Virus record (IMG/VR): IMGVR_UViG_2667528065_000004
DNA length: 11,218 nucleotides
From: a virus
Taxonomy: Duplodnaviria > Heunggongvirae > Uroviricota > Caudoviricetes
Direction: 5' to 3' (one strand)
Each line of letters begins with the position of its first letter. Within the stretch, counting starts at the first letter, position 1. The notes beneath the pieces are model-generated. The model was not told the DNA's origin. It searched no databases and saw only the letters and a program-made list of their open reading frames with translations. This document shows, piece by piece, positions 5,922 to 6,825 of this stretch. The position numbers and the translations under genes are program-made.

Positions 5922-6076
5922 AGCATCCTCACGATAATATCCGGGTAGGTGCGATCACTTTCGTCTACTCCGTTACAAAGCGAGGCTGGGTATTTCCCGG
6001 GCCTTCTGTTATCCGAAATCCGCTGAAAGCCCAGCGACTGGCTGAGGAGATAAATAATAAACGGGAGAGTGTATGA
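5918..6076 (+). CDS. orf60a-like small protein (52 aa), not in the supplied ORF track
   Basis: ATG at 5918 overlaps the exo stop. Translation [52 protein letters not shown] resembles lambda orf60a as I remember it. Its stop overlaps the next ATG (ATGA at 6073-6076). Confidence 0.5.
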
Positions 6077-6825
6077 TTCATTTTCACGGTGGTCCAATAA
6101 CTCCCGATACCTGTGCGTTGAAAGCCTGGAAAGGCAGACACGCATTCATCAGTTTTGCTAATCCAGCTCAGATTGATCTGGCTTCCGAAGTCACCCAATC
6201 ATTTGCTCTTGATAATGGTGCATTCACATTCTGGACAAAAAACAAGGCCGTAGACTGGAATGAATATTACAGATTTGTTGAACGCTGGGGTAATCACCCT
6301 CGTTTCTCATTCGCGGTTATCCCGGATGTTATCGGCGGAACCAGTGAAGAGAATGACGCCCTGATTGCGGCATGGCCTCACGGTAAATTTATTGGTGCTC
6401 CGGTGTGGCACATGAACGAACCAGATGAGCGATTTATTCGTCTGTGCCATGAGTTTCCCCGCGTCTGCATCGGCTCGATGGGGGAATACGATGCAAAACG
6501 ACCGAGAGCGTGTCGGGCTAAACTACGCGATCTTATACGTCATGTTGTAGATCAGTACGGCTACCCAATCACCAAGATTCATGGGTTACGGATGTTAAAT
6601 AAAGACATTTTTACTCATGTACCGCTTTCGTCTGCAGACAGCACGAACGTCGCAAGAAATATAGGCATCGACAAATCCTGGGTAGGTTCGCCATATGCTC
6701 CCGCAAGTAAAGAAACCCGTACGCAAGTTCTTGTGGAACGCATTGAATCATTCAACAGTGCCAGTTCACTTAATTACAACGCTGAACGGGACGTCTTTAC
6801 CCCTCAGTTGGCATTCGAAGTGTGA
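6073..6825 (+). CDS. Minimal TGT-fold protein, DpdA-like (putative DNA-guanine transglycosylase for 7-deazaguanine modification)
   Basis: 250-aa ORF, GGGAGAG upstream. Motifs collinear with E. coli Tgt as I recall it: FALDNGAFTF vs LTDSGGFQVF, AVIPDV vs MIFDEC, RVCIGSMGEY vs GYAVGGLAVGE, ITKIHGLRML vs PRYLMGVGKP, SADSTNVARNIG vs FDCVMPTRNARNG. No Cys-rich zinc subdomain. The CDS call is firm; the family assignment is inference at about 0.5. Confidence 0.6.
   Translation: MIHFHGGPITPDTCALKAWKGRHAFISFANPAQIDLASEVTQSFALDNGAFTFWTKNKAVDWNEYYRFVERWGNHPRFSFAVIPDVIGGTSEENDALIAAWPHGKFIGAPVWHMNEPDERFIRLCHEFPRVCIGSMGEYDAKRPRACRAKLRDLIRHVVDQYGYPITKIHGLRMLNKDIFTHVPLSSADSTNVARNIGIDKSWVGSPYAPASKETRTQVLVERIESFNSASSLNYNAERDVFTPQLAFEV

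Follow-up and report, generated by a model that had tools for sequence, protein, structure and literature searches.

The gene analyzed here lies at positions 6073-6825 (+ strand) of an 11,218-nucleotide stretch of viral DNA (IMG/VR record IMGVR_UViG_2667528065_000004, Caudoviricetes), the whole of which is referred to below as the window. It encodes a DpdA-like protein of 250 residues, a predicted DNA guanine/7-deazaguanine transglycosylase of the tRNA-guanine transglycosylase (TGT) superfamily, and is a "singleton": no pathway genes are linked to it. The window corresponds to the early-left arm of a lambdoid prophage that has integrated at icd. In this arm the gene directly follows gam-bet-exo-orf60a, in the variable region preceding the DksA-like gene, the DUF4222 gene, xis, and int. 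The Red genes immediately upstream (4157-5921; Pfam Gam, RecT, and YqaJ) are gam (4157-4453), bet (4459-5244), and exo (5241-5921), all on the + strand. A first-pass annotation of this DNA had described the gene as inserted in the Red module; it is located beside the Red genes, immediately downstream of them and not within the module. The 54-residue DUF1317/orf60a-like gene (5912-6076, + strand) matches PF07026 with an E-value of 1.5e-32 over model positions 1-52 of 60, which means that it is slightly short. The ATG of the DpdA-like gene (6073-6075) overlaps the TGA of this open reading frame (ORF; 6074-6076) in the sequence ATGA, so that the ATGA overlap with a shortened orf60a-like peptide noted earlier is confirmed. 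Also as described earlier, an ORF of 71 residues with no known function follows 7 nt downstream (6833-7048, + strand; phrog_303, E 2.8e-34).

The ORF is present as annotated and is found with 99.9-100% identity in about 100 E. coli genomes. Of 5,426 complete E. coli genomes, 100 (about 2%) carry it at an identity of 99% or more, chromosomal every time, and the stretch 5241-7400 shows 99.9% identity in 97 complete E. coli genomes. This near-identity in so many genomes argues that it is not a chance ORF. The region 4000-7700 is free of the insertions that are found elsewhere in the window and are described at the end, which leaves both the DpdA-like gene and the Red genes intact.

The protein is 100% identical to gp34 of Shigella phage SfI (YP_009147480). 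Hutinet et al. 2019 (PMC6884629) give this accession in their Supplementary Data 1, among the phages with DpdA and without G+/preQ0 genes. In other words, the DpdA assignment of this protein is already known, and the present one repeats a published bioinformatic classification of an identical protein. The same singleton listing holds the homologues of HK106, SPN3UB, BTP1, Athena1, and 7-11 (PMC6884629); the window protein is 67.6% identical to those of BTP1 and SPN3UB and 36% identical to that of 7-11. Nothing of substance distinguishes it from these singletons, which likewise have no preQ0 genes in the phage and are covered by the same host-precursor hypothesis. The window copy differs from that of SfI in its setting, which is an icd-integrating lambdoid prophage with an integrase and an immunity region unlike those of SfI. 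The singletons form the "third group" of the 2019 survey, its largest, with 76 of 182 viruses, and the singleton DpdAs of gamma-proteobacterial phages form a separate similarity cluster (PMC6884629).

Profile comparisons gave the same placement. The protein matches phrog_887 with an E-value of 4e-99, and the DpdAs of phages CAjan (8e-96) and 7-11 (7e-74) fall in the same PHROG. In BLASTP comparisons, the identity was 36% with the 7-11 enzyme (E 1e-36) and 21% with the CAjan enzyme (E 2e-4), and in the latter the LD(N/S)GAF, PD/LD-x-IG, H, and S-x-DS motifs were in register. The family comprises 6,182 clusters at 90% identity; at 50%, an exhaustive search yielded 1,731 representatives. An alignment of 74 diverse relatives, down to about 31% identity, was taken from the 1,731 representative clusters (alignment A2) and compared by hhalign with an alignment of the CAjan DpdA family (A3): the probability was 98.8%, with an E-value of 9.4e-17 over 172 columns. 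The weakest matches in a tblastn search against phage genomes included mycobacteriophage genes annotated "DpdA-like", one of which adjoins a GTP cyclohydrolase gene. The protein can thus be assigned with high confidence to the phage DpdA family, its gene being intact. The family is large and under selection.

Of the two family placements proposed earlier for profile searches, that in the phage DpdA family was obtained (phrog_887 and hhalign), and a Pfam PF01702 match was not. The protein matched nothing in Pfam, NCBIfam, or PADLOC; the Pfam and NCBIfam TGT models gave no match to it at E ≤ 1, nor did the Pfam TGT model to the 74 relatives. Searches of the PDB sequences by phmmer and hmmsearch with the protein and with alignments A1 and A2 returned chance matches only. 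CAjan DpdA, which has been validated genetically, served as a control together with the profile of its family, and these also find nothing in the PDB sequences; the precomputed Pfam field of the CAjan DpdA family is likewise empty. The PDB and Pfam negatives therefore carry no weight. We found no Pfam or NCBIfam model covering the family, although it has over 6,000 clusters at 90% identity. The names in use conflict. RefSeq phage records and PHROGs give "queuine tRNA-ribosyltransferase", PGAP gives "hypothetical protein" for the identical E. coli protein, and a 39%-identical homologue is named "Co/Zn/Cd efflux system membrane fusion protein" in one GenBank record.

If the first of these names is taken literally, the protein would be a tRNA-guanine transglycosylase acting on host or phage tRNA. 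Its predicted membership in the TGT structural superfamily agrees with this, but the name is common to the whole of phrog_887, including the CAjan enzyme, for which modification of DNA has been demonstrated genetically. The TGT models of Pfam (PF01702) and NCBIfam gave no match, as described above. Compared with the tRNA enzymes (bacterial TGT and archaeal ArcTGT, PF01702), the protein is about one third smaller (250 residues versus about 375), lacks the zinc subdomain that stabilizes tRNA binding, and presumably has DNA as its substrate. In addition, E. coli encodes its own TGT. Action on tRNA thus seems extremely improbable.

The active-site residues of the phage enzymes are well retained, in agreement with the TGT-like catalytic motifs noted in the first-pass annotation. 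For CAjan DpdA, Kot et al. described Asp63 as the base and Asp206 as the nucleophile, with a pocket of Ser64, Phe67, Asp105, His132, Gly153, Gly154, and Phe189 (PMC7544227). The corresponding set in bacterial DpdA (bDpdA) is Asp95, Phe99, Asp130, His181, Leu236, and Asp256; as a D95A or D256A mutant the enzyme is inactive (PMC10164549). In the window protein, the L46-D47-N48-G49-A50-F51 segment (codons at 6208-6225, + strand) was aligned with these by BLASTP, hhalign, and mafft-profile. Asp47, which is present in all 74 relatives, is predicted to act as general acid/base (CAjan Asp63, bDpdA Asp95); Phe51 is predicted to stack on the base (CAjan Phe67, bDpdA Phe99) and is Phe or Tyr in 72 of the 74. 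The predicted nucleophile is Asp189 (CAjan Asp206, bDpdA Asp256) in the S187-A-D189-S190 motif. Asp189 and Ser190 (codons at 6637-6642, + strand) align to D206-S207 of CAjan, and both are invariant (74/74). The predicted pocket histidine is His113 (6409-6411, + strand; CAjan His132, bDpdA His181), which was aligned by hhalign and mafft-profile and is His in 73/74.

Asp85 (6325-6327, + strand; Asp in 73 of the 74) is the predicted base-recognition residue (CAjan Asp105, bDpdA Asp130). It was aligned to CAjan Asp105 by BLASTP and was 3 residues off in hhalign and mafft-profile, so that its equivalence is probable. In the H170-G171-L172 segment (6580-6588, + strand), His170 is invariant; by analogy with H226/D248 of Cap10, it might be the hydrogen-bond partner of the nucleophile. 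Leu172 (70/74) stands at the position of Phe189 in CAjan and of Leu236 in bDpdA. Among the other pocket positions, Asn48 is Asn in 66/74, Gly134 is conserved in 72/74, and Ser135 is Ser in 58/74. Consequently, of the nine published CAjan pocket and catalytic residues, six are identical (Asp47, Phe51, Asp85, His113, Gly134, and Asp189), Leu172 is a conservative replacement, and Asn48 and Ser135 differ. The 7-11 enzyme has the same Asn and Leu at two of the variable pocket positions, which makes the window protein of the "7-11 type" and not of the "CAjan type".

The DpdA1 proteins of CAjan and 9g (Queuovirinae), which are validated dPreQ0/dG+ transglycosylases, thus share with the window protein the PHROG, the catalytic Asp pair, the base-recognition Asp, the His, and the absence of a zinc motif. 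They differ in size, the CAjan enzyme having 306 residues and the window protein 250 with a shorter C-terminal part, at about 21% identity. The CxCxxC motif is absent from the window protein and from the 74 relatives, which have no conserved Cys. The absence of the zinc subdomain noted earlier is therefore correct; the statement that this is expected of DpdA-type enzymes does not hold for bacterial DpdA, which keeps the site CXCX2CX22H (PMC10164549). It is phage DpdA and Cap10 that typically lack the zinc site. The bacterial enzyme (S. Montevideo, PDB 7UI4) has 413 residues and the Ins1-3 and Ins8 insertions in addition to this site, none of which is found in the window protein (PMC10164549).

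An AlphaFold2 (AF2) model was built from the 74-sequence alignment. It shows a TGT-like (β/α)8 barrel, and membership in the TGT structural superfamily is predicted. An earlier AF2 model was dropped as poor: built from a shallow alignment limited to sequences of 63% identity or more, it had a pLDDT of 72, and its Foldseek matches were generic TIM barrels. The best structural match of the protein was Cap10 of the type IV CBASS (PDB 9NTN), at 10% identity. This match raises the alternative that the protein is Cap10-like, binding or transferring protein-linked or free 7-deazaguanine as a counter-defence against type IV CBASS or QatABCD, and is not a DNA modifier. Cap10 binds a protein-linked 7-amido-7-deazaguanine, and its partners are Cap9 (QueC-like) and a CD-NTase. 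Such partners are absent from the window, and no QueC was found in 80 related loci, in which CD-NTase was not searched for. A Cap10-like role is considered very unlikely. In Cap10 the pocket His is replaced by K154 and the nucleic-acid surface by a dimer interface; the window protein has His113, as in DpdA.

Two natural fusions bear on the pathway in which the domain works. In a distant relative on a phage contig (L003 2840-3847, P0248), a QueD/PTPS domain (E 1e-24) is joined to a DpdA-like domain; the contig has no other recognizable que genes. In another (L093 6001-7266, P0235), a Dam-type D12 N6-adenine DNA methylase (E 9e-62) is joined to it; this fusion occupies the dam position in a P2/186-like prophage and lies directly upstream of gpA. 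The former ties the DpdA-like domain to the 7-deazaguanine pathway, and the latter ties it to DNA modification.

The genes for making the base are not linked to the DpdA-like gene. No queC/D/E or folE-like genes had been noticed in the window, and tblastn with the CAjan proteins confirmed this: it found no homologues of FolE, QueD, QueC, QueE, or YhhQ in the window. There were also no que or folE genes within ±10 kb in 80 related viral loci of IMG/VR, whose relatives are at least 77% identical. The CAjan query set is sensitive enough to pick up a QueD domain of 24% identity. Linkage to preQ0/G+ synthesis genes is typical of DpdA1 and DpdA2 and is not required for the singleton group. In contrast to the window gene, the DpdA1 genes belong to a folE-queD-queC-queE cluster, and the modification they bring about affects up to about 30% of G.

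The neighbours of the gene vary among the 80 loci: DUF1317 is directly upstream in 33, the 71-residue ORF is adjacent in 26, and 47 have a DksA-like gene downstream. P22-like phages have ead/ea22 as the neighbour. With neighbours as varied as these, the gene behaves as a self-contained cassette of the variable early-left region. DUF1317 or the 71-residue ORF as an obligate partner was rejected, each being adjacent in just 33 and 26 of the 80 loci, respectively. A promoter of its own was also rejected: no sigma-70-like site was found on the + strand between exo and the DpdA-like gene, and the start overlaps the upstream gene. For these two reasons, the gene is presumably co-expressed with the Red genes from the early-left operon in lytic growth.

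Taken together, these results favor, with moderate confidence, an enzyme that exchanges guanine in DNA for a host-made 7-deazaguanine; this predicted activity is favored by the homology, the strict catalytic conservation, the fusions, and the 9g and 7-11 data described below. The protein would be a phage DpdA in reduced form, belonging to the TGT superfamily as a transglycosylase with a TIM barrel, and we infer that it acts on double-stranded DNA. After prophage induction or infection, its gene would be transcribed with gam-bet-exo-orf60a from the early-left (pL-type) operon. The enzyme would flip out a guanine; Asp47 would deprotonate N9 of the incoming 7-deazaguanine base, and the base would then be joined to the sugar. 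The base would have to come from the host queuosine pathway as preQ0 or its precursor ADG, since the phage has neither folE nor queD, queE, or queC. The expected product is phage DNA in which a small fraction of G would be replaced by dPreQ0 or dADG at particular motifs, and such DNA may blunt some restriction or other DNA-targeting defences.

Use of host queuosine-pathway intermediates, as the first-pass annotation had it, coincides with the reliance of singletons on host preQ0 proposed by Hutinet et al. (PMC6884629). The 9g enzyme makes it plausible: expressed alone in E. coli, 9g DpdA puts dPreQ0 into plasmid DNA from host preQ0, at 790 per 10^6 nt (PMC6884629). Phage 7-11, which has no pathway genes, has DNA with 50 dADG per 10^6 nt (PMC6884629), and the DpdA-only Pantoea phage MED16 has 354 dADG per 10^6 nt (PMC8306585). 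Host preQ0 or ADG would most likely be inserted into the phage DNA in lytic growth, probably at a low level. The 7-11-type pocket hints that the base might be ADG rather than preQ0.

Several points weigh against this interpretation. The levels are low, 0.02% of G in 7-11 and 0.13% in MED16, and their dependence on DpdA is presumed (PMC6884629, PMC8306585). Orion, a singleton phage whose host lacks the preQ0 pathway, shows no modification, and Hutinet et al. warn that the singleton clusters may have diverged in function (PMC6884629). Compared with the CAjan enzyme, three pocket residues are replaced (Ser to Asn48, Gly to Ser135, and Phe to Leu172), which could alter the substrate. Cap10, the best structural match, binds a protein-attached deazaguanine and has no known action on nucleic acids. 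The ATPase DpdB, which bacterial DpdA needs, is not present here, nor are DpdC-K, with which it works (PMC10164549); PADLOC gave no Dpd match for the DpdA-like protein, and the window ORFs with Pfam matches are all lambdoid, two ORFs being without a match. Finally, for the TGT part of the assignment, the Pfam scan of the 74 relatives gave neither a TGT (PF01702) nor a DUF6610 match, a negative to which the CAjan control described above applies.

Some of these points could also be explained by a functionally diverged enzyme of the TGT fold that inserts no deazaguanine and instead catalyzes guanine exchange or base excision on its own, host, or rival-phage DNA, or removes 7-deazaguanine. The separate, fast-diverging singleton clusters with their possible change of function (PMC6884629), the three pocket positions, and the very low or absent modification in singleton phages agree with such divergence, as does the existence of defence glycosylases against deazaguanine DNA, which implies that this chemistry is under selection on both sides. 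On the other hand, the full double-displacement set (two Asp, the base-recognition Asp, and the His) is conserved across the family, the QueD fusions tie the domain to deazaguanine supply, and the 36%-identical homologue of 7-11 occurs in a phage whose DNA holds dADG. Functional divergence of this kind therefore seems unlikely, and deazaguanine insertion is preferred.

A protective effect is the least certain part of the deazaguanine-insertion reading. 7-Deazaguanine modification of DNA protects against restriction enzymes and Cas9, and such DNA is in turn targeted by the newly found defences GrwAB and the Dag glycosylases. The mark might protect against restriction in the present case too, but the low levels measured in DpdA-only phages make an anti-restriction role doubtful. 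These levels (at most 0.13% of G in the tested singletons), together with the three pocket differences and Cap10 as the best structural neighbour, leave room for readings in which the stand-alone DpdAs of lambdoid, P22-like, and P2-like temperate phages are site-specific or non-canonical enzymes and not bulk anti-restriction modifiers; these are distinctly unlikely. For example, dADG or dPreQ0 could be written rarely, at a small number of defined sites, as a self/non-self or regulatory signal, or deazaguanine could be used on a non-DNA target, as with Cap10, to disturb deazaguanine-dependent host immunity.

The singleton DpdAs were the largest group in 2019 and are yet the least understood. 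If guanine exchange with host preQ0 or ADG does take place, many temperate phages of enterobacteria would bear an epigenetic mark that is cryptic and depends on the host. The subfamily occurs in Stx-converting, serotype-converting (SfI), and epidemic-Salmonella (BTP1) prophages, and the gene described here sits in a genetically tractable lambda-like prophage. A literature search of incomplete coverage found no later experimental work on the lambdoid/P22-like subfamily.

The remainder of the window is that of a lambdoid prophage arm. The gene for a CI-type repressor (S24-peptidase) is at 1623-2378 (+ strand). Divergent from it, at the cro/cII position, are a YdaS/Cro-like gene (1354-1584, - strand; PF15943) and a YdaT-like gene (745-1284, - strand; PF06254). 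Downstream of the 71-residue ORF are the DksA/TraR-like gene (7147-7365, + strand), the DUF4222 gene (7413-7652, + strand), and a lambda-type integrase gene (8090-9232, + strand), followed by icd on the - strand. In the Pfam scan of the window, the other sizeable ORFs with a match have ordinary lambdoid functions; the ORFs at 2440-3393 and 3671-4081 had no match. Between the 71-residue ORF and the DksA-like gene lies a terminator-like hairpin (7069-7087, + strand) with an 8-bp stem and a T-rich tail, through which read-through from the early-left promoter would need antitermination.

The ORF at 2440-3393 (+ strand) encodes a 317-residue protein at the position of rexAB in lambda and SfI and matches the PADLOC candidate defence family PDC-S42 with an E-value of 3.4e-86. 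It is probably a prophage exclusion or defence gene expressed with the repressor. In the related prophage of E. coli SCU-484, a different pair (DUF6932 and a hypothetical protein) occupies the rexAB position.

Two groups of repeats were observed. At 195-288 a 19-23-bp unit, TTTACCTGATTCAGGTAAAC, which is itself partly palindromic, occurs two to three times. The counterpart of this stretch in a related genome falls inside a replication-protein gene, and the repeats probably represent origin iterons like those in lambda O. At 9242-9284, directly past the integrase stop and near the prophage-icd junction, there are 3.4 copies of a 13-bp unit, AGTTTTGGGGAAG. These may be att-site protein-binding repeats, or one more tandem duplication of the window.

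It should be mentioned that the window differs from the closest complete genome, that of E. coli SCU-484, by seven insertions of 20-36 bp, most of which are perfect or near-perfect tandem duplications (7744-7767, 7851-7872, 7953-7977, 9844-9865, 9902-9937, 9976-10010, and 11039-11058). Further indels of 1-4 bp are at 8044, 9443-9446, and 10035. These changes disrupt the reading frames of the excisionase and icd, and one falls in rluE. None of the insertions occurs in any complete E. coli genome, the best icd match having 97.7% identity and being shorter by about 104 nt. Their appearance is that of artefacts of assembly or sequence, or of deliberate edits, rather than of biology.

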